This document shows positions 3,998 to 28,797 of a stretch of DNA of 64,000 nt, one piece after another (within the stretch, counting starts at the first letter, position 1; every line of letters starts with the position of its first letter). This DNA comes from Escherichia phage naam: the sequence record MN850630.1, one strand, 5' to 3'. The position numbers were made by a program, and so were the translations under genes. The notes beneath the pieces are model-generated. The model saw only the letters and a list, made by a program, of their open reading frames with translations. It made no database searches and was not told where the DNA came from.

Positions 3998-6775
3998 ATG
4001 AGCATGTGGTCGTTCGATTTTGAGTCATCCGGTTTGCTGGAAGACCCAGATCTTTATTATCACTGCGGCCTGTTTAAAGAGCTGAATAAGAACCGTTTTA
4101 TGCTGTTCCTTCCTCTGAATGACCGCACACACTACTCCGAGGAGGATATAGAGAAGGCCAAGAACTTTATTCTGGCAAAGAAAACTCTTTATAAGGATTT
4201 TGAAGTTCGCATAGCAGATTTTTCGGAGTTGGAAGGTTGGCTTACAGGAAATTCCGACTGGTCACCAACAGCTTTGAACTGCCATAACTGCTACAGTTAT
4301 GACTTTATGCTGATGGAGAGATTATCCGGTATTCATTTTGATATGTTCCGTGATCCTAAATGTATGGGGACTATCAACGACCACCAGGTTAACCTGTTTG
4401 ATACGTTGGCGATGAGCCGAATCTTGTGGCCTGATCGCCCTTTACCAAAAGGTTGTCCGGACTCCGTATTCAACCCGGTTACTAAGAAAATGCAGCCTGT
4501 TGGTCCTCACGGCCTTATGGCATGGGGCTACGCCCTTGGTAACCAGAAAGTTCAAATTGATGACTGGCGCGATCTTCCGTTGTGGAAGTATGTGGATCGT
4601 GTATTCGAGGACGTTATCATCCAGGAGCTACTCTGGAAAGAGCTGGTAGCGGAATCAAAAGGTGTATTCTACGGCAAATCTGACATGCAGAACTTTATGT
4701 ACGATCCTGCCAAAGAGAAGCCGAAAGGGTTCAAGAAGATCACCTGGAAGAACGCATTGCGCCGGGGTATGCTGCAACACTTCCTGATGGAGCTGCAGGC
4801 CCGTCAGGGTGTGTATTTTGACATAGATGGGGCTATTGCTTTACGTGACCGTTGCGATGCTTGGATGAAAGAAATCGCTGATCGTGTTGAACCACAACTA
4901 CCTTTAAAAGAGCTGTCAATGTCTCAGCGGCCCAAGTTCCCTGAAAAGCCGTTTAACCAAGATGGGACAATCTCCAATAATGGTTGGAAATGGTTAAAAG
5001 ATAAGCTTGGCTATCCTGTGGACATGAGTGCTTTAGAGTTCAAGGCCCCGCCTAAGCGAGCATTTACCTCTACAGGAGATGTCAGTAAGATGGGGATAAA
5101 ATGGTGTGAAGAGATGGGCTGCAAAGACCCAGATAAGATGGCTGATTTCTTGAGAGGCTATATTAAGGGCACCTCCACACCACAACCTTTGCCTAAAGAG
5201 CTAATGGATCAGGCAATAAGTGATCTACAGCAGAAGCGAATGCCGGACTGCAAGATACCTATGAAAATCAGCAACCAGGACGACATTAAGCGATACCTGA
5301 TCAGTGCTGGTTGGCTTCCGACAATGTGGAGAACTAAGGATGTAACTAAAGACAGCAAGAAGAAAGCTCTACCTGATGCAGATGTTGATGCACGAGTATA
5401 TGCATATATGGACGAGCTTTTAGAGTCAGAGTATTGTGACCTGATTATCAACTTCTGGAACAAAACTGATGCTAAGTTCCAGACAACCGTGCACAAGTTC
5501 CGAAGCTTTCCTAACTCCGAAAGGATTAAAAAGGAAGTATTCGGGAAAATACGTAGAAAAGCTAGGGCACTTATTACTTCTCCGCAACTGAAAGATACTT
5601 TTGGACACCTATGTCCAAATCTTGAAAAATTGAACGGAGAGATGGCTAAAGATATCGTCTTGTGGTTATCATTGCGAAACCGCAGATCGGTCCTTGATCC
5701 AATCAAGGAGGATAAGGTTGATACTGGTCTTCTTAATCACCCACGTTTGAAGATTGACCATAAGCTTCCTGCTAAAAGCTCTGGATTAACAAACACTTCC
5801 CGACAGAAACACAGTATTTGTGCAAACATGCCTAAACCATCTCCTAAAGTGGTTATGGGTAAAGAGATGCGTAGTCTGTGGGGTGTTCCTCCAGGATACT
5901 TTGAGATCGGTATTGACGGGTCCAACTTAGAGCAGCTTATCGGGGCTTGGGGTGCCTTTGAGTTCGACAACGGCTTGTATTATGATGTTGTAAGTAACGG
6001 AGACGCACACCAAAACAACGCCGAGGCATATACAAAAGTAGCAGGCAGAGAGGTATCTCGTAACGACGGTAAACCTATCACGTATGGGGTTATGTACGGG
6101 GCACAAAAAGACAAAGTTGCAGACATGCTGGATATCTCCCCAGAGTTGGGACAAAGGGTAATTGATGCACTTTGGGATGCCAACCCTGGTCTTAAGGGGC
6201 GTAAAGAAGATCTGGAGAAATTCTGGGAAGCAACGGGTAAGAAGTTTATCTACTCTTTTGATGGTCATGCTATCTGGACCCGATCTAAACACTCTTTACT
6301 TAATGCATACCAACAGAATGGTGGTGCATCGTTGTGTGACTTAGTTGGGATACTCATGCACCACCAAATGGTGAAGCGTGGGTGGTACGATGAAGGTGTT
6401 CGTCGTATTATTTATTACCATGACGAATATCAGCTTCAAGTCCCTGACACACCTAAGTATAAGACTGTGTACACCTTCGACACAATTGAAGAACTGGAAG
6501 CATTTAAGGCAGAGCAGGAGTCCAAACTTCATGTGTTCGACGGTCATAAGTACAAAAAGGCACGCAAGGATGAGGACGGAAACGAAGTGGTTGACAGAGA
6601 CGGAAACACGGTGTACGATCCTATCCTGAACGATGACGGAAAGCTTGAACTTATCTGGAGCCCTGTGGGTGAAATGGTGGTGCATTGCTTCTGGCAAGCT
6701 TCTAAAATGATGGGCGTCCCGTTTCAGATCACAGGTGAATACCTGTGTGGTCGTAATTGGGGTGATTGTCACTAA
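3998..6775 (+). CDS. DNA polymerase, family A, with 3'-5' exonuclease domain
   Basis: 925 aa; exo motif FDFESSG; PolA motif B K..YGVMYGAQ; motif C YYHDEYQL; AAGGAG RBS. Confidence 0.9.
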   Translation: MSMWSFDFESSGLLEDPDLYYHCGLFKELNKNRFMLFLPLNDRTHYSEEDIEKAKNFILAKKTLYKDFEVRIADFSELEGWLTGNSDWSPTALNCHNCYSYDFMLMERLSGIHFDMFRDPKCMGTINDHQVNLFDTLAMSRILWPDRPLPKGCPDSVFNPVTKKMQPVGPHGLMAWGYALGNQKVQIDDWRDLPLWKYVDRVFEDVIIQELLWKELVAESKGVFYGKSDMQNFMYDPAKEKPKGFKKITWKNALRRGMLQHFLMELQARQGVYFDIDGAIALRDRCDAWMKEIADRVEPQLPLKELSMSQRPKFPEKPFNQDGTISNNGWKWLKDKLGYPVDMSALEFKAPPKRAFTSTGDVSKMGIKWCEEMGCKDPDKMADFLRGYIKGTSTPQPLPKELMDQAISDLQQKRMPDCKIPMKISNQDDIKRYLISAGWLPTMWRTKDVTKDSKKKALPDADVDARVYAYMDELLESEYCDLIINFWNKTDAKFQTTVHKFRSFPNSERIKKEVFGKIRRKARALITSPQLKDTFGHLCPNLEKLNGEMAKDIVLWLSLRNRRSVLDPIKEDKVDTGLLNHPRLKIDHKLPAKSSGLTNTSRQKHSICANMPKPSPKVVMGKEMRSLWGVPPGYFEIGIDGSNLEQLIGAWGAFEFDNGLYYDVVSNGDAHQNNAEAYTKVAGREVSRNDGKPITYGVMYGAQKDKVADMLDISPELGQRVIDALWDANPGLKGRKEDLEKFWEATGKKFIYSFDGHAIWTRSKHSLLNAYQQNGGASLCDLVGILMHHQMVKRGWYDEGVRRIIYYHDEYQLQVPDTPKYKTVYTFDTIEELEAFKAEQESKLHVFDGHKYKKARKDEDGNEVVDRDGNTVYDPILNDDGKLELIWSPVGEMVVHCFWQASKMMGVPFQITGEYLCGRNWGDCH

Positions 6776-6824: not shown

Positions 6825-7109
6825 ATGGTAGTAGAACCAACAAAAACATTTACATCCATGACTATCCCTGTTATTATGCAGGTGGAGTGTGTTCAGGTAT
6901 CTCAAGTGTGGCCAGGCACTAAAATCCCAACAGGGCCTGATTTCTTTCAGGTTGGGAAAGTGTACAATGTCTGGAAGGCACCAGATTGTCACCCTTTCAT
7001 CAAAGATGACCGTGGAATGCTGTGGTATCTTGGAAATGATTTGACACTGCACCTTGGGAATGCTATTATTGCAGTATTCAGACTTAACAAGAAGGAGACT
7101 GATCAATGA
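6825..7109 (+). CDS. hypothetical protein
   Basis: ATG at 6825 six nt after AGAGGAG; longest frame (6735) overlaps polymerase 3' end. Confidence 0.5.
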   Translation: MVVEPTKTFTSMTIPVIMQVECVQVSQVWPGTKIPTGPDFFQVGKVYNVWKAPDCHPFIKDDRGMLWYLGNDLTLHLGNAIIAVFRLNKKETDQ

Positions 7110-25668: not shown

Positions 25669-26088
25669 ATGAACATTAAATCTAATAATCCGGCATATAG
25701 CTTTGATAACGCTTTTTGTCACGGTCCGGCGGCGAAAGGATTCGAAATCGATGGTAAACTAATTATTGTCAATGTTGACGGGGAAGAGGTTGCAGTATAT
25801 CCGGTGGCAGACGTAAAAAGCCGTTTACAATGCCGCATGGATGTTACCGCCTATCAGCTTGATCCGGTCCGCATAGTTGCCCTGGTCCTGGAAGAAGAAA
25901 TTAAAGCCATGCACCATAGCAACAGATTTATTGGTGACGCGCAGGATAATATGAAAGTATGCCGCCATAAAGTTAATGAAGTGCTTAAAGAGTACGGCTA
26001 TAAAGATCTTATGATCAAACGTGAGGAAAAATTCCGCTACCGTAACGACCTGGCAAATCGGATTTTTGAAATATACGAATCATTATAA
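25669..26088 (+). CDS. hypothetical protein
   Basis: 139 aa, AAGAGG RBS; last gene of plus-strand block. Confidence 0.6.
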   Translation: MNIKSNNPAYSFDNAFCHGPAAKGFEIDGKLIIVNVDGEEVAVYPVADVKSRLQCRMDVTAYQLDPVRIVALVLEEEIKAMHHSNRFIGDAQDNMKVCRHKVNEVLKEYGYKDLMIKREEKFRYRNDLANRIFEIYESL

Positions 26089-26106
26089 TTTTTTAACTGA
26101 ATTATC

Positions 26107-26132
26107 AAGGGGCTTAGGCCCCTTTCTTTTTG
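26107..26132 (+). terminator. rho-independent terminator
   Basis: AAGGGGC-ttag-GCCCCTT + TCTTTTTG. Confidence 0.65.
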
Positions 26133-26135
26133 TCT

Positions 26136-28580
26136 GCTCTTCCCCCTACCATAAACGGCCCTACCTGGCAAGTGGAATAATTGACGAGCCATCAATCCTA
26201 CACACTGTACAAACATACATGTAAAATAGCTATTGCATAACCTTTCATTGTGTGGTAGCGGTGCTATTTTTTACCAGTTTTCCTTCCAAAATTGCACGTA
26301 ATGCCGCTATTGCACAAATTTTAACCTGATGCACATCTCCAATATCTTGTCAACAACTAAAAATCTTTATAAGTCATACACTTACACAGCATCGAAAGCG
26401 TGTTCTACGCGAAAAATCGAGTATAACTATAGCCGCCAGATCTCAGAATTCACGTACGCACGCCATTCTATAGCCTGCAAAGTATTTATTCCAACCACAG
26501 AATAACGGAATAGTCAATACCTGCATAAAATAATTATTAGTGTAAACTGCATAACATAAATCAGCTCAGGTGTCAACATTTTTCGTAAACAGTCCGAAAT
26601 TATCACGATGAGTTATCATAAACAGAGAAATCTTTAGTCGTCTAATGTTTACTGTACATTACTATACTGACTGGAATCATTAGATGACTAAGAGAAAGAT
26701 AAGAAATAATTAATAATGTAATTGTTTTACCTGTAACAATAAGGCAACTATGCAAACGAATGGCATGGCGCGACGGAGTCGCGACATAATATAAAAGCAG
26801 TAACCATCACCCCCGTGATAGTTTGTCTGCAATCTATTAATCAGATCATAGTTGCCTTGTATTCAGTTAATCATGACATGATAAGCAAGGCAACTATAGA
26901 TCTTCTAATAGTTGCCCTGCTTTTATATTATGTCATAGAAACACCCGAAGGGGTGACCAAAGGTCACCTGGCATAGCCAGTGAAAGATTATTAACTTGCT
27001 AATAGTTATCATGCAAACGAATGGCATGGCTGATTATCGGTGTGTAAACAGTCAATCATGTAAATGGTTAGCATGTGAACAATCAGAAATGTAAACAATC
27101 CAGTGTGTAAACTAATAGGTGTGTAAAAGTGTCATGTTGTGTCAGTTAGGTCACATTATGTCAGACAAGTTTTTCTCCTCTTTGTCAAGTGCTGCATGAA
27201 AAATTTACAAGCTTGTATGGTAGCATTTTTGCGGCCCTGTTTACATTCAGTGTTGTATGTATAATCCTTGTTGTGTGGGCGTTTAGACGTCTGGACGGTC
27301 AGAAGTCTGCAGGTTAATATCTAATCTATCGGCTGCTAACTATATCCCACACAAATAGTAAGAAATATAATTGTTATGTGCGTAAACAGTAACCCATGTT
27401 ATCAATCCCTGTATGTATCGCCAGTGGTGCGCATAATGGGTATTATGTTAAATTGCCCGTAATGATAACAGTTCTCACAATGATAGGTATTCTCATTCAC
27501 CCCCACAAGATAGGTTGCAAATGTTGTGCCACTGTGTGAACGGCCTGGCCTATTAATTTGCCTCACTGCCTTGATATTTGAGAATTATTATAAGAATGAG
27601 AAGTATTCCCATTTCGTCCGCCTGGCAGCACTCCTGTAGGTCAGGTCAAAATCGTGGTAGAACTAGACCTATCCGGATATTTCTGGCTGACTCTTCAGGT
27701 CTGTGTGGGAAAAGCCAACCTCTCCGGCGGGGCAGGGGGAGGTCAATTAAAAAATTTACGTGGTGTATGAAGCGCTCTTCAGGTAAGGCAGGTATTATGG
27801 GATGAAACCCGCTTCAGGCAATGATATTTGTGGGTGTGATATTTGCTGGAAGGCCAGATATGACGGGACTCCCGGCGGGGCAGGGGTAGTACAGACAGGG
27901 AAAATATGGGGATGTAGTTGGGGAAATTGATCAGACAGGTAGAGTATGGAATATGTTACAGGTATGTTAAATATGGAGGTTGAATATCTGTAGGATTTGT
28001 GTGTAAAATCAAAGACTTAAGGGGTGTTGTGGTATTTTCTATAAATAATTCAAGTTTAATAGGCAATATTTGTCTCTATCCGCTTTGTGTGGTAAACAGA
28101 TTCAGATGAGATTGGTTTACAAGTGTATACATAATATACAAATTAAAGATACAAGAAACCCCCCTCCCCCTTCGGCTACCATTCACCTTTTCCTCTGACT
28201 GGTACTTAAACACTTATTCAGACTCTTCAGGTTATCACCCATATATCATATGGCAGTGACTGGTGTCCTCCGGCCCCTCTTTCGTCACCCGTCCGCTTCG
28301 CCATGCTAATGCCATAGCTAATGGTTCGGTTGTTCACCCTGTTCACTCAGGTGTATCTCTATACCCCTTCAAACCGAAGAGAACAGAAAACCCGAATTAC
28401 TCGGTAAAAGAAAAGAGAAGAACTTAATTTTATCAGGATAGGCAAGAATGTCAAGGCATGACTGCTCACTAAACAAGCAAACAGTCATGTGTGGGAGGTA
28501 AGTGATTGTGGTGGTAGGAAATTTAGTTGAAAGATGTGTTATAGGTGCTTCCAGCACTTTAGCCGGGCAGCTAATTGTGT
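26136..28580. other. repeat-dense non-coding region between convergent gene blocks
   Basis: No convincing ORF; direct and inverted repeats, GTGTAAAC-like motif cluster, GC-rich direct repeats. Confidence 0.6.
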
Positions 28581-28581
28581 G

Positions 28582-28797
28582 TCAGTCCAGCGGTTCATCC
28601 TCTACTTCACTGAAATCAATGTTCATGGTCTCTTCCCAACCATCGATCTCAGCACAAGAGTGGAGTTCTTTAGGGTTTACTCCCAAAGCCTCAGCAACAG
28701 AGTCTATATTTAACACCTCTGGCAGGTATGATTCATCGAATTCAAGGTAAATCAGGCCACGAGTGTTGTCAGCTCCACCAAATATCTCTATCTTCAT
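28582..28797 (-). CDS. small acidic protein
   Basis: 71 aa, GAGGAG RBS. Confidence 0.5.
   Translation of the reverse strand: MKIEIFGGADNTRGLIYLEFDESYLPEVLNIDSVAEALGVNPKELHSCAEIDGWEETMNIDFSEVEDEPLD

Follow-up and report, generated by a model that had tools for sequence, protein, structure and literature searches.

What is a dense cluster of nested inverted and direct repeats doing in a part of a phage genome that carries no genes? The window analysed here, a 64-kb stretch of Escherichia phage naam (MN850630.1), belongs to an rV5-like Vequintavirus, and the cluster lies within a 2.5-kb gene-free gap separating convergent gene blocks, which is the unexplained "non-coding" box of Kropinski 2013. 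A sequence-only reading had taken the cluster for alternating half-sites of a dimeric DNA-binding protein. According to our analysis, the locus is more than a simple array of sites for protein binding, and its most likely role is to help in processing the ends of the genome.

Repeat structure of the locus

All repeats named in that reading are real, with coordinates off by 1–3 nt at most. The 18-bp inverted repeat (IR18) consists of 26783–26800 and its perfect complement at 26917–26934 (previously placed at 26918–26935), with 116 nt between the arms. It is the sole perfect inverted repeat of at least 13 nt with a spacer of up to 300 bp in the window, where six 13-mer inverted-repeat seeds were observed vs 0.45 in shuffles. 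The four alternating half-sites are exact copies of ATAGTTGCC at 26743 (−), 26848 (+), 26889 (−) and 26908 (+), so that 4 of the 6 exact copies in 64 kb fall within 175 bp. The 20-nt direct repeat (DR20), ATGCAAACGAATGGCATGGC, has two perfect copies, at 26750 and 27011, where chance alone would give 0.01 matches. The small palindromes CGCGAC-GGA-GTCGCG (26769–26783) and GGTGACC-AAA-GGTCACC (26952–26968) were also recovered, together with a further one, CACCCGAAGGGGTG, at 26942–26955. What had been missed is that the repeats nest into one 152-bp quasi-palindrome, that an iteron-like array (27040–27130) adjoins it, that the direct terminal repeat (DTR) of the genome begins at 27164, and that a fifth, degenerate half-site, GCAATCTAT (26829–26837), pairs with the fourth. 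The features are as follows.

26741–26752, minus strand: half-site copy 1, AAGGCAACTATG (complement of CATAGTTGCCTT), outside the palindrome; overlaps the start of the first DR20 copy and is kept in phage FV3
26750–26769, plus strand: DR20 copy 1, flanking the element on the DTR-distal side
26769–26783, no strand assigned: mini-hairpin CGCGAC-GGA-GTCGCG, within the motif GGCGCGA(C/G)-N6-9-GCGACAYAATA
26783–26800, plus strand: left (DTR-distal) arm of IR18, GACATAATATAAAAGCAG, outer closing stem of the quasi-palindrome
26802–26823, no strand assigned: side hairpin AACCATCAC-CCCC-GTGATAGTT, in which a C.A mismatch on the plus strand is a U.G wobble on the minus strand
26829–26916, no strand assigned: long inner arm of the palindrome, built from half-sites 2, 3 and 4
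26883–26934, plus strand: alternative pairing of half-sites 3 and 4 (15-bp stem, 10-nt loop, then a T-rich tail), a predicted intrinsic terminator restricted to this genus
26917–26934, minus strand: right (DTR-proximal) arm of IR18, CTGCTTTTATATTATGTC, perfect complement of the left arm
26939–26985, plus strand: triple mini-hairpin cassette (CCC-GAA-GGG, GTGACC-AAA-GGTCAC, CTGGC-ATA-GCCAG), movable and dispensable
27011–27030, plus strand: DR20 copy 2, endpoint of the FV3 deletion
27040–27130, plus strand: iteron-like array of ~16-bp repeats, YGTAAACAGTNA, with copy number varying among phages
27136–27163, minus strand: three tandem TGACAYAAY repeats abutting the DTR boundary
27164–27622: DTR, 459 bp, single copy in the window (GenBank records and Korf 2019, PMC6563267)

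In the long inner arm, GCAATCTATTA...ATAGTTGCCTTG (half-site 2, 26848–26859) pairs with CAAGGCAACTAT (half-site 3, 26886–26897)...TAATAGTTGC (half-site 4, 26908–26919).

The 47-nt mini-hairpin cassette moves between positions and is present in some phages and absent from others. The small palindromes, real as they are, lie outside the core: they are parts of this movable cassette, separate from the palindrome itself.

Genomic setting at the terminal repeat

The position of the DTR is given by several GenBank records. In the Gotham record, 459-bp repeats are annotated at both ends and map to window positions 27622 and 27164; the ECP2309 and YN3 records also carry the DTR at both ends, and those of bov10K2, bov25_3 and Aya begin at the DTR boundary. 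A terminal redundancy of 458 bp has been reported for Vequintavirus (Korf 2019, PMC6563267). The repeat locus is 130–430 bp outside one DTR boundary, with the palindrome ~230 bp outside and iteron-like arrays between the two, and the DTR together with its flanking repeats is the concatemer junction. No counterpart palindrome was found on the opposite side of the DTR.

A motif is shared between the palindrome and the boundary. TGACAYAAY, three tandem copies of which stand at the boundary, also forms the outer 9 bp of both palindrome arms (as GACAYAATA). Of its 49 matches in 64 kb, 5 lie within 380 bp, namely the three at the DTR boundary and one per arm.

The gap is left empty in most careful annotations. 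The only reading frames overlapping the locus are short (up to 53 aa) and are not conserved as genes, and a tRNA/tmRNA scan of the whole window gave no hit. The neighbouring gene blocks each have their own terminator (e.g. 26107–26124). With a GC content of 36–40%, the gap is not markedly AT-rich. GC and AT skew, dominated by local C-rich and G-rich patches, gave no information on an origin or on the direction of transcription, and skew was uninformative in Kropinski 2013 as well.

Conservation, distribution and a natural deletion

The arrangement is conserved in relatives: the palindrome was found in 117 of the 119 Vequintavirus records in which the DTR was found, and diverged versions exist in other genera. 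Nucleotide diversity (pi) in the core is 0.016, vs 0.06–0.11 in the flanking non-coding DNA and the DTR, which makes the core 4–6 times more conserved than neighbouring non-coding DNA. DR20 copy 1 is identical in the 19 Vequintavirus sequences mapped, save one base in FV3 and L042, and copy 2 has a pi of 0.014 between hypervariable flanks. The locus is conserved, non-coding and cis-acting, and is not a chance repeat.

At the homologous position, phages of the genera Avunavirus, Mydovirus, Seunavirus and Henunavirus, as well as an uncultured clade, have diverged versions; the element was also found in Av-05, PVP-SE1, 4MG, and Cronobacter, Enterobacter and Erwinia phages. In KPP-1 (Mydovirus), whose DTR has been mapped (PMC9862379), and in the L008 clade, both its orientation and the side of the DTR on which it stands are kept, and the distance between palindrome and boundary is ~310 bp in KPP-1. 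In PVP-SE1, AV124 and FENT2, additional arm copies are located between palindrome and DTR. An analogous direct repeat flanks the element in the L008 clade, and the iteron-like motif GTAAAC(A/T)GTCAA is shared with the KPP-type clade.

Searches further afield gave little. Relatives sought in IMG/VR through the flanking 139-aa protein amounted to 3 loci only; a metagenome pattern scan gave 39 matches, most of which were due to chance and did not resemble the gap; when the locus was searched by distant blastn, Vequintavirus matches alone came back, with no T5-like match.

FV3 alone lacks the palindrome. It has a single DR20 left in place of the segment between the two 20-nt direct repeats, and a search of FV3 for a substitute palindrome found none. 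As FV3 lives without it, the element cannot be an essential pac or ori component and is probably not strictly required for genome maturation. The presence/absence polymorphism and the single DR20 of FV3 could also be read as traces of a selfish miniature inverted-repeat element, with IR18 as its terminal inverted repeats, DR20 as the target duplication and FV3 as the empty site, and the neighbouring 47-nt cassette does move. However, we consider this highly improbable. There is one copy per 64 kb, the DR20 copies are 13 and 76 bp away from the inverted repeats, and half-site 1 lies outside the supposed insert yet belongs to the same repeat family. Moreover, the homologous position in several genera indicates vertical inheritance, so that a deletion between the direct repeats is the best reading of FV3. 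A miniature inverted-repeat transposable element (MITE) was rejected for these reasons: single copy, direct repeats apart from the arms, and a vertically conserved position.

Folding and covariation of the palindrome

The quasi-palindrome (26783–26934) is closed by the perfect 18-bp stem, and its predicted fold is far more stable than expected (z = −8.9 as plus-strand RNA, −8.8 as minus-strand RNA and −9.0 as DNA). In the alignment of the outer stem, all 119 cells are Watson-Crick without any mismatch, and both partners have changed in 9 of the 17 pairs; this level of covariation was reached by none of 500 shuffles. The inner hairpins covary as well, and of 54 pairs in the KPP-type clade, 9 show compensatory change. 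Closely related KPP-type phages differ at arm positions 14–17, and the partner arm is always the exact complement. The side hairpin is kept in the L008 clade with a compensatory change. Insertions fall within hairpin loops, including a 33-bp insertion tolerated in the central loop of the inner arm in some phages. Such compensatory changes indicate base pairing, which predicts them, while sequence-specific half-sites do not. Perfect arms could, on the other hand, also originate from template-switch homogenisation of quasi-palindromes in the absence of selection (PMC8604942).

This bears directly on the earlier proposal, in which a dimeric protein would bind cooperatively to duplex DNA, with the alternating ATAGTTGCC(T/C)TG sites and the arms of IR18 as its operator half-sites. 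In its favour, half-sites, arms and DR20 are sequence-identical within the genus while spacers vary. But ATAGTTGCC is confined to Vequintavirus, and the other Vequintavirinae clades build the same hairpins from unrelated sequences. Site spacing is not fixed either (26 or 59 nt between half-sites 2 and 3 among phages), and independent sites would need no exactly complementary changes of the kind seen in the KPP-type arms. Half-site sequence and spacing are thus not conserved independently of complementarity, as an operator array would require, and the ATAGTTGCC "half-sites" are genus-specific stem halves. The operator model appears improbable. A part of it may survive: across clades, sequence is conserved in the motif GACAYAATA of the outer arms and in GGCGCGA-N-GCGAC next to it, the longer form GGCGCGA(C/G)-N6-9-GCGACAYAATA beside the DTR-distal arm is likewise shared across clades, and the arm motif recurs at the DTR boundary. 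This pattern makes some sequence-specific protein recognition of the arms likely.

Strand asymmetry and a possible role as RNA

The main stems are strand-asymmetric, since their mismatches are G.U on the minus strand of the window and A.C on the plus strand. In all 19 elements compared, which represent at least four clades, the minus strand folds better by 5–18 kcal/mol, and in RNAalifold it reaches −74.1 vs −61.5 kcal/mol. The G.U pairs on the minus strand are invariant or arise by one-sided change; pair 178–198, for example, is AU in 5 sequences and GU in 5. This asymmetry is a classic signature of transcribed RNA and is not expected of a symmetric cruciform, which argues against a DNA cruciform.

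It is accordingly possible, although on balance somewhat doubtful, that the palindrome is transcribed, mainly from the minus strand (from the DTR side outward), and that the folded RNA is functional. It might serve as a bidirectional terminator or insulator halting convergent transcription at the concatemer junction, or as a structured ncRNA that would be freed by RNase III-like cleavage of the perfect 17–21-bp closing stem. The tolerated loop insertions fit an RNA, and terminator-like hairpins with T-rich tails exist on both strands in this genus. On the minus strand, it is the side hairpin with its T-rich tail (26823–26802); on the plus strand, the candidate is the 15-bp stem 26883–26897/26908–26922 followed by TTATATTATGTC, whose 10-nt loop put it outside our terminator scan. 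In this genus the arms thus double as T-rich tails on both strands, which counts against the DNA explanation. The Murica and Alma records annotate a plus-strand terminator at this place, and bidirectional terminators had been anticipated between genes 163 and 164 by Kropinski 2013, who found none there. In addition, a near-consensus sigma-70 promoter (28454→28427, minus strand) faces the DTR and palindrome and is conserved in L008.

Several observations speak against the RNA explanation. No terminator-like site was detected inside the L008 or KPP-1 palindromes, so the canonical geometry is not retained. There is no conserved promoter immediately upstream, and the promoter candidates for the element are weak or lineage-specific. 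The outer stem contains no wobble pair among its 119 cells, which is unusual for RNA stems, and the 3-nt GNA loops of the mini-hairpins on the plus strand are of the DNA-hairpin type. In Rfam 15, no family matched at gathering thresholds; with permissive settings the best was His_leader (26.5 bits vs a gathering score of 49, E = 0.14).

Compared with known bidirectional intrinsic terminators, the element is similar in lying between convergent gene blocks and in having, within this genus, hairpins with T-rich tracts behind them on both strands, one of which was called a terminator by other annotators. It differs in being far larger (150–220 nt, 3–4 helices), in its sequence-conserved motifs, and in a T-tract geometry that is non-canonical outside the genus, and the gene blocks already have terminators of their own. 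A simple terminator would also leave the position and orientation relative to the DTR and the shared boundary motif unexplained. Attenuation through alternative pairings (1:2, 2:3 and 3:4) of the four ATAGTTGCC copies was considered separately and rejected, because no gene lies downstream to be regulated and the layout with four copies is peculiar to the genus.

Is the locus part of a replication origin?

An origin or recombination role, as also suggested by the sequence-only reading, is still plausible for a locus adjoining iteron-like repeats and the genome terminus. For a lytic phage that has terminal repeats, a partition site is improbable. In the origin version, modelled on iteron plasmids and the oriV of IncQ plasmids, the array at 27040–27130 would bind a phage initiator, and the palindrome would provide strand-specific, ssi-like priming hairpins or aid unwinding. 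Direct repeats with a period of ~16 bp, which lies within the range for tandem iterons of an iteron-type origin (~16–22 bp), adjoin the palindrome with variable copy number, and their motif is conserved between genera. In the L008 clade, the counterpart of the DTR region carries 2–3 perfect DnaA boxes in tandem. Strand-specific folding agrees with a signal for single-strand initiation, a class of signals that can typically be dispensed with, as the element can in FV3. T7 secondary origins reportedly flank the concatemer junction (Chung & Hinkle 1990, cited in PMC4281155).

Against an origin, DnaA boxes occur in the L008 clade only and are absent from the gap of the window and from the KPP-type clade: a search for TTATCCACA with up to one mismatch found none in 26000–28600, and the gap is not markedly AT-rich, as an unwinding element would be. 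The skew analysis gives no help here. Furthermore, the iterons abut the cut site of the terminal repeat, and recognition by terminase, in the manner of cosB, fits them at least as well. We regard the origin reading as rather unlikely.

A proposed base-pairing element at the concatemer junction

The locus is best read as the conserved core of a gene-free "terminus module" of Vequintavirinae genomes, and the element within it as a non-essential, base-pairing cis element of the packaging/replication module. Our preferred explanation, which we put forward tentatively, is an accessory cis-acting DNA signal of concatemer-junction metabolism that works by intramolecular base pairing. We infer both that DNA is the active form and that the element is linked to packaging or replication. 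When the region turns single-stranded or supercoiled, one or both strands of the palindrome would fold, as a hairpin or cruciform, and present the end-recognition motif (TGACAYAAY) at the base of the stem. The folded palindrome may serve as an auxiliary terminase or end-processing site; alternatively, it may be where DNA synthesis stops or is primed, in duplicating the terminal repeat or in starting lagging strands.

The adjoining iteron-like arrays are supporting context, and mini-hairpins with GNA-type triloops lie on the plus strand. Such triloops are unusually stable in single-stranded DNA and typical of DNA hairpins. A precedent is found in the oriV of IncQ plasmids (RSF1010), where iterons stand beside a large palindrome carrying the structure-dependent sites ssiA and ssiB; ssi sites of the G4 and phiX types are structure-dependent and often dispensable. 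Both loci place iterons beside a large inverted repeat, and in both the arms of that repeat form hairpins in a strand-specific way, but the present element lies at a packaging terminus.

Another precedent is the injection stop signal (iss) region (Repeat Region 3) of T5, rich in repeats and palindromes at the terminal-repeat boundary (Davison, bioRxiv 10.1101/866236). Both regions are untranslated and group-conserved, are made of nested direct and inverted repeats, palindromes and tandem arrays on either side of the inner boundary of a direct terminal repeat, and are more conserved than neighbouring DNA. DnaA boxes exist in T5 and in the L008-type clade. However, there is no detectable sequence similarity, the terminal repeat of T5 is 10 kb vs 459 bp here, and T5 has eight paired DnaA boxes vs none in the gap of the window. 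Two-step injection is not known for rV5-like phages, and one multi-hairpin palindrome, for which covariation is demonstrated, makes up the element here.

T7 offers a third comparison, with a hairpin intermediate at the concatemer junction (PMC4281155), and T7-type packaging has been predicted for the Vequintavirinae phage KPP-1 (PMC9862379). As in T7, there is a short exact terminal repeat with a defined boundary beside the element, short direct-repeat arrays abut it, and an inverted repeat lies just outside at a conserved position. In T7, transcription termination and pausing at the junction are implicated in maturation. Unlike T7, the rV5-like phages use the host RNA polymerase, and their palindrome is much larger, branched and dispensable in FV3.

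In phage lambda, cosB carries R sites for the small terminase subunit and an IHF site beside the cut site, and it provides accessory recognition, not the cleavage site. The short repeated elements beside the terminase cut site, some of them inverted, resemble it, and by this analogy those of the present locus are candidate accessory elements. Lambda differs in having cohesive ends and no terminal repeat, and its R sites form no long covarying palindrome.

A more far-reaching version, which we think unlikely, is an undescribed, subfamily-wide and strand-specific folded nucleic-acid device at the concatemer junction, made of either DNA or RNA. As DNA, its hairpin would prime or delimit duplication of the 459-bp terminal repeat, and copying of one arm from the other would keep the arms perfectly complementary; it would then be a bacterial-virus analogue of hairpin-primed end replication. 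As RNA, it would be excised from a junction-crossing transcript by cleavage of the closing stem, and might regulate packaging or counteract host defence.

Few coliphages are isolated as commonly as the rV5-like phages (Vequintavirinae), which are also well represented in the BASEL collection (PMC8594841), and their use in biocontrol and therapy has been widely proposed. Their 2.5-kb "non-coding" box has stood without explanation since 2013. Our analysis places the terminal repeat inside this box, defines a covarying, subfamily-wide structured element beside it, ties the arms of the element to the boundary repeats, and identifies FV3 as a natural deletion mutant. These results are of use for phage engineering, as they point to non-coding DNA to keep, and for the annotation of genome ends, and they open the recognition and duplication of short terminal repeats in large myoviruses to concrete tests.

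A single quasi-palindrome beside the terminal repeat

All repeats listed for this locus by the sequence-only reading are present. The 18-nt inverted repeat (IR18) is perfect (26783-26800 / 26917-26934; 116 nt separating the arms), and in a whole-window scan it is the sole perfect inverted repeat of at least 13 nt with a spacer up to 300 bp. Copies of ATAGTTGCC (half-sites 1-4, left to right) do alternate in orientation, with exact matches at 26743(-), 26848(+), 26889(-) and 26908(+), which are four of the six exact copies in 64 kb. The 20-nt direct repeat (DR20-1 and DR20-2) is perfect at 26750 and 27011, against a chance expectation of 0.01 matches. These repeats are not independent of one another: they are nested in a single 152-bp quasi-palindrome (26783-26934), of which IR18 is the closing stem. 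Its fold is far more stable than that of shuffled sequence, whichever strand or parameter set is used (z = -8.85 for + RNA, -8.76 for - RNA and -9.02 for DNA).

The window comes from an rV5-like Vequintavirus (97.6% identity to phage nimi across the locus), and the locus lies inside a 2.5-kb stretch without credible genes (26089-28581). Kropinski et al. (PMC3606486) drew this stretch, which separates rV5 genes 163 and 164, as a "non-coding" box and left it without explanation; they anticipated bidirectional terminators between these genes and found none. The direct terminal repeat (DTR) is placed at 27164-27622 because the Gotham record has a 459-bp repeat_region annotated at each end (first base at 27622, last base at 27164), the same segment stands at both record ends in ECP2309 and YN3, the records of bov10K2, bov25_3 and Aya start exactly at its boundary, and 458-bp terminal redundancies were described in two Vequintavirus isolates (Korf et al., PMC6563267). 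The window sequence is the concatemer-junction form, with a single DTR copy.

Features of the gene-free stretch, in + strand order
26088: end of the left neighbouring genes (+ strand)
26107-26124: terminator of the left neighbours
26743: half-site 1 (- strand)
26750: DR20-1, followed by a GGA mini-hairpin
26783-26934: quasi-palindrome
26802-26823: side hairpin with CCCC loop, within the quasi-palindrome
Long arm, within the quasi-palindrome: half-site 2 pairs with half-site 3, and half-site 4 with a degenerate fifth copy, GCAATCTAT
After the quasi-palindrome: variable segment
27011: DR20-2
27040-27130: iteron-like array, period about 16 bp
27136-27163: three tandem TGACAYAAY repeats (- strand), adjoining the DTR
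27164-27622: DTR
28582: end of the right neighbouring genes (- strand)

Most rV5-like GenBank records leave the terminal gap empty. Some (e.g. MiataMamis, L017 1113-3613) fill it, palindrome and terminal repeat included, with many "hypothetical protein" ORFs of 30-68 aa, which are not conserved as genes. In addition, 18 or 19 UNVERIFIED "Campylobacter phage" records are rV5-like coliphage genomes. Across the DTR from the palindrome lies a G-rich patch carrying a separate set of repeats (27689-27976 and 28221), namely GACTCTTCAGGT (three copies), CCGGCGGGGCAGGGG (two) and CAGACAGG-N-ATATGG (three); CTCTTCAGG and GATATTTGTGGG are repeated in the divergent L008 clade too. Fur-box-like 7-1-7 palindromes (TGATAA-N-TTATCA, e.g. 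TGATAAGGATTATCA) recur in terminal non-coding regions of several clades: window 27449-27490, inside the DTR; KPP-1 (L065) 2942, 3000, 3144 and 3386; and L010 4669, 5448 and 5632.

Conservation within Vequintavirus

Among 19 mapped Vequintavirus sequences, the half-sites and IR18 arms are identical wherever the element is present, and DR20 is changed in a few of them, never by more than one base. The core (26735-26937) has a nucleotide diversity of 0.016, compared with 0.077-0.107 for the left non-coding DNA, 0.063 for the DTR and 0.30 for the iteron array. The palindrome occurs in 117 phage records and the DTR in 119. The distance from DR20-1 to DR20-2 varies from 198 to 339 bp; length variation arises from a 33-bp central-loop insertion that is optional, a segment after the right arm that is present, absent or replaced, and short-repeat copy number. 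The iteron-like repeats at 27040-27163 (about 16 bp, YGTAAACAGTNA) contain many indels and differ in copy number among close relatives; this array may be a binding site for the small terminase subunit or an initiator.

FV3 is the sole phage without the element: half-site 1 and a single DR20 are followed directly by the iterons, and no substitute palindrome was found in it. No other phage has this junction; the two records that show it both belong to FV3. Because more distant clades carry the element, the parsimonious reading is that FV3 lost it by a deletion from one DR20 copy to the other. On the basis of one FV3 assembly, laboratory growth thus does not require the element.

Both "small palindromes" of the sequence-only reading belong to a cassette of about 47 nt with three mini-hairpins (26939-26985; AAC-R-CCC-nnn-GGGGT, a covarying middle stem-loop and ACCTGGC-RWA-GCCAG-YGAAA), the middle stem being GACC/GGTC, GGAC/GTCC or AGC/GCT. 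The cassette appears mobile. It comes after the right palindrome arm in many Vequintavirus phages and is missing from others, lies inverted about 1.9 kb away in one Vequintavirus contig, and sits within a hairpin loop of the palindrome in the L008-type (uncultured) clade. Besides the window, its positions include L071 ~225-275, L027 ~5745-5795 and 6906-6920, and L009 7326-7340 (- strand).

Homologous elements and covariation

The motif GGCGCGA(C/G)-N6-9-GCGACAYAATA, beside the DTR-distal arm, retrieves homologous elements in several non-Vequintavirus groups.

Homologous elements outside Vequintavirus
Uncultured clade: L008, L027, L044, L062, L071
Avunavirus: Av-05, 18-1-2
Mydovirus: KPP-1, BIS47, KNP2, AV124
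Seunavirus: PVP-SE1, 4MG, Cronobacter and Enterobacter phages
Raoultella phage Ro1
Henunavirus: an Erwinia phage

The KPP-1 DTR, which was mapped experimentally (PMC9862379), aligns in reverse with the window DTR, and the KPP-1 distal arm and flank align with those of L008. From these alignments, the KPP-1 palindrome, about 310 bp from the DTR boundary, lies on the homologous DTR side in the same orientation. That the element is a miniature mobile element is very improbable.

The arms differ by lineage (...TAAAAGCAG, ...ACGCTGAG, ...ACGCAGTAG, ...ACACGGGAG, ...ACACTAGGG, ...ACACGAGGG, ...ACACGAGAG), and PVP-SE1-type phages also have GACACTATA within the outer arm part that is conserved elsewhere; in every variant the opposite arm is exactly complementary. 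Over the 17 outer positions, all 119 cells are Watson-Crick, nine pairs are changed on both sides and none on one side, and 0 of 500 shuffles reached this covariation, with only positions 10-17 being free observations because the arms were located by extension from a 9-nt anchor. Ten KPP-type sequences (69-99% identity) give a consensus structure of 54 pairs, nine with compensatory double changes that include both inner hairpins. GC-rich insertions are located in the loops of hairpins, whose stems stay unbroken.

The alternating half-sites had been taken to suggest cooperative binding of a dimeric protein. ATAGTTGCC is, however, confined to Vequintavirus, and the corresponding hairpins are kept elsewhere with stems of other sequences; a protein operator array is quite unlikely. 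Because the stems covary and are rebuilt where ATAGTTGCC is absent, the element is selected, or maintained, for base pairing rather than as an array of half-sites. Perfect arms could also persist through template switching within quasi-palindromes (PMC8604942).

A motif link to the genome end

The outer ends of the arms are TGACATAAT or CGACATAAT (motif TGACAYAAY), and the same motif stands three times in tandem, flush with the DTR boundary. Allowing one mismatch, the motif has 49 matches in 64 kb, and five of them lie in a stretch of 380 bp, against about 0.3 expected. PVP-SE1, AV124 and FENT2 carry a third arm copy between palindrome and DTR, and the iteron motif GTAAAC(A/T)GTCAA is common to Vequintavirus and the KPP-type clade. 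The boundary repeats, extra arm copies and common iteron motif would connect the palindrome with the factor, whatever its nature, by which the genome end is recognised. The element might instead be part of an iteron origin, which we consider unlikely and which overlaps in spirit with a role in the terminus module.

In the L008-type clade, the region that corresponds by homology to the terminal repeat contains two or three perfect tandem DnaA boxes (TGTGGATAA; L008 5845, 5857, 5876, with 6029 as an additional position) and another that deviates at one base; L027, L062 and L071 show the same pattern. They resemble those of the T5 iss region; none was found in the window's gap or in KPP-type phages.

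DNA or RNA as the acting form

The evidence on the acting form points in both directions. Action at the RNA level, as a terminator, an insulator or an excised non-coding RNA, is a somewhat less probable reading. Folding speaks for a single-stranded form of the window - strand: this strand folds better by 3-18 kcal/mol in 19 of 19 elements (5-18 in 18 of 19) and is favoured by 12.6 kcal/mol in RNAalifold. Non-canonical main-stem pairs are G.U on the - strand and A.C on the + strand, with a one-sided A-to-G change tolerated in half of the KPP-type sequences, but the closing stem has no wobble pairs. In Vequintavirus, both strands end with a hairpin and then a T-rich arm, that of the + strand being annotated as a terminator by others, yet this geometry is not retained in other clades. 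A near-consensus - strand promoter (28454->28427), kept in L008, faces the DTR and palindrome, whereas no conserved promoter was found directly upstream of the element. Very stable DNA mini-hairpins characteristically have 3-nt loops of the GNA type, and the mini-hairpin loops are of this type on the + strand, with two exact GCGAAGC in L027. The conserved position and orientation and the common end motif also suggest recognition at the DNA level.

The promoter is of sigma-70 type (TTGACA-16-TAAAAT with TG) and lies in a non-coding region that is near-invariant among relatives (28200-28500; pi 0.004-0.02). A small terminator-like hairpin follows it (28404-28392), also kept in L008. The product could be a small RNA, a leader or a transcript that runs across the junction.

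Proposed role and significance

We tentatively favour a non-essential cis element of the terminus module, which would act through its structure in concatemer-junction processing, packaging or replication priming. The closest known analogues are T5 Repeat Region 3 / iss, the T7 concatemer junction (which has a hairpin intermediate and a pause site), lambda cosB and IncQ oriV. The T5 region, a still unexplained "Matryoshka" of repeats, palindromes and DnaA boxes, is located where the T5 terminal repeat has its inner boundary (bioRxiv 10.1101/866236). The T5, T7, lambda and IncQ systems are comparable in location and have no sequence in common with the element.

No earlier description of the element was found in the literature searched. 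The region has been depicted as "non-coding", as spurious small ORFs or as one lone "terminator". The element belongs with a known kind, the repeat and palindrome modules adjoining terminal repeats. Its moderate interest lies in its subfamily-wide spread, its clear covariation, the existence of a natural deletion mutant and the fact that it can be tested directly.
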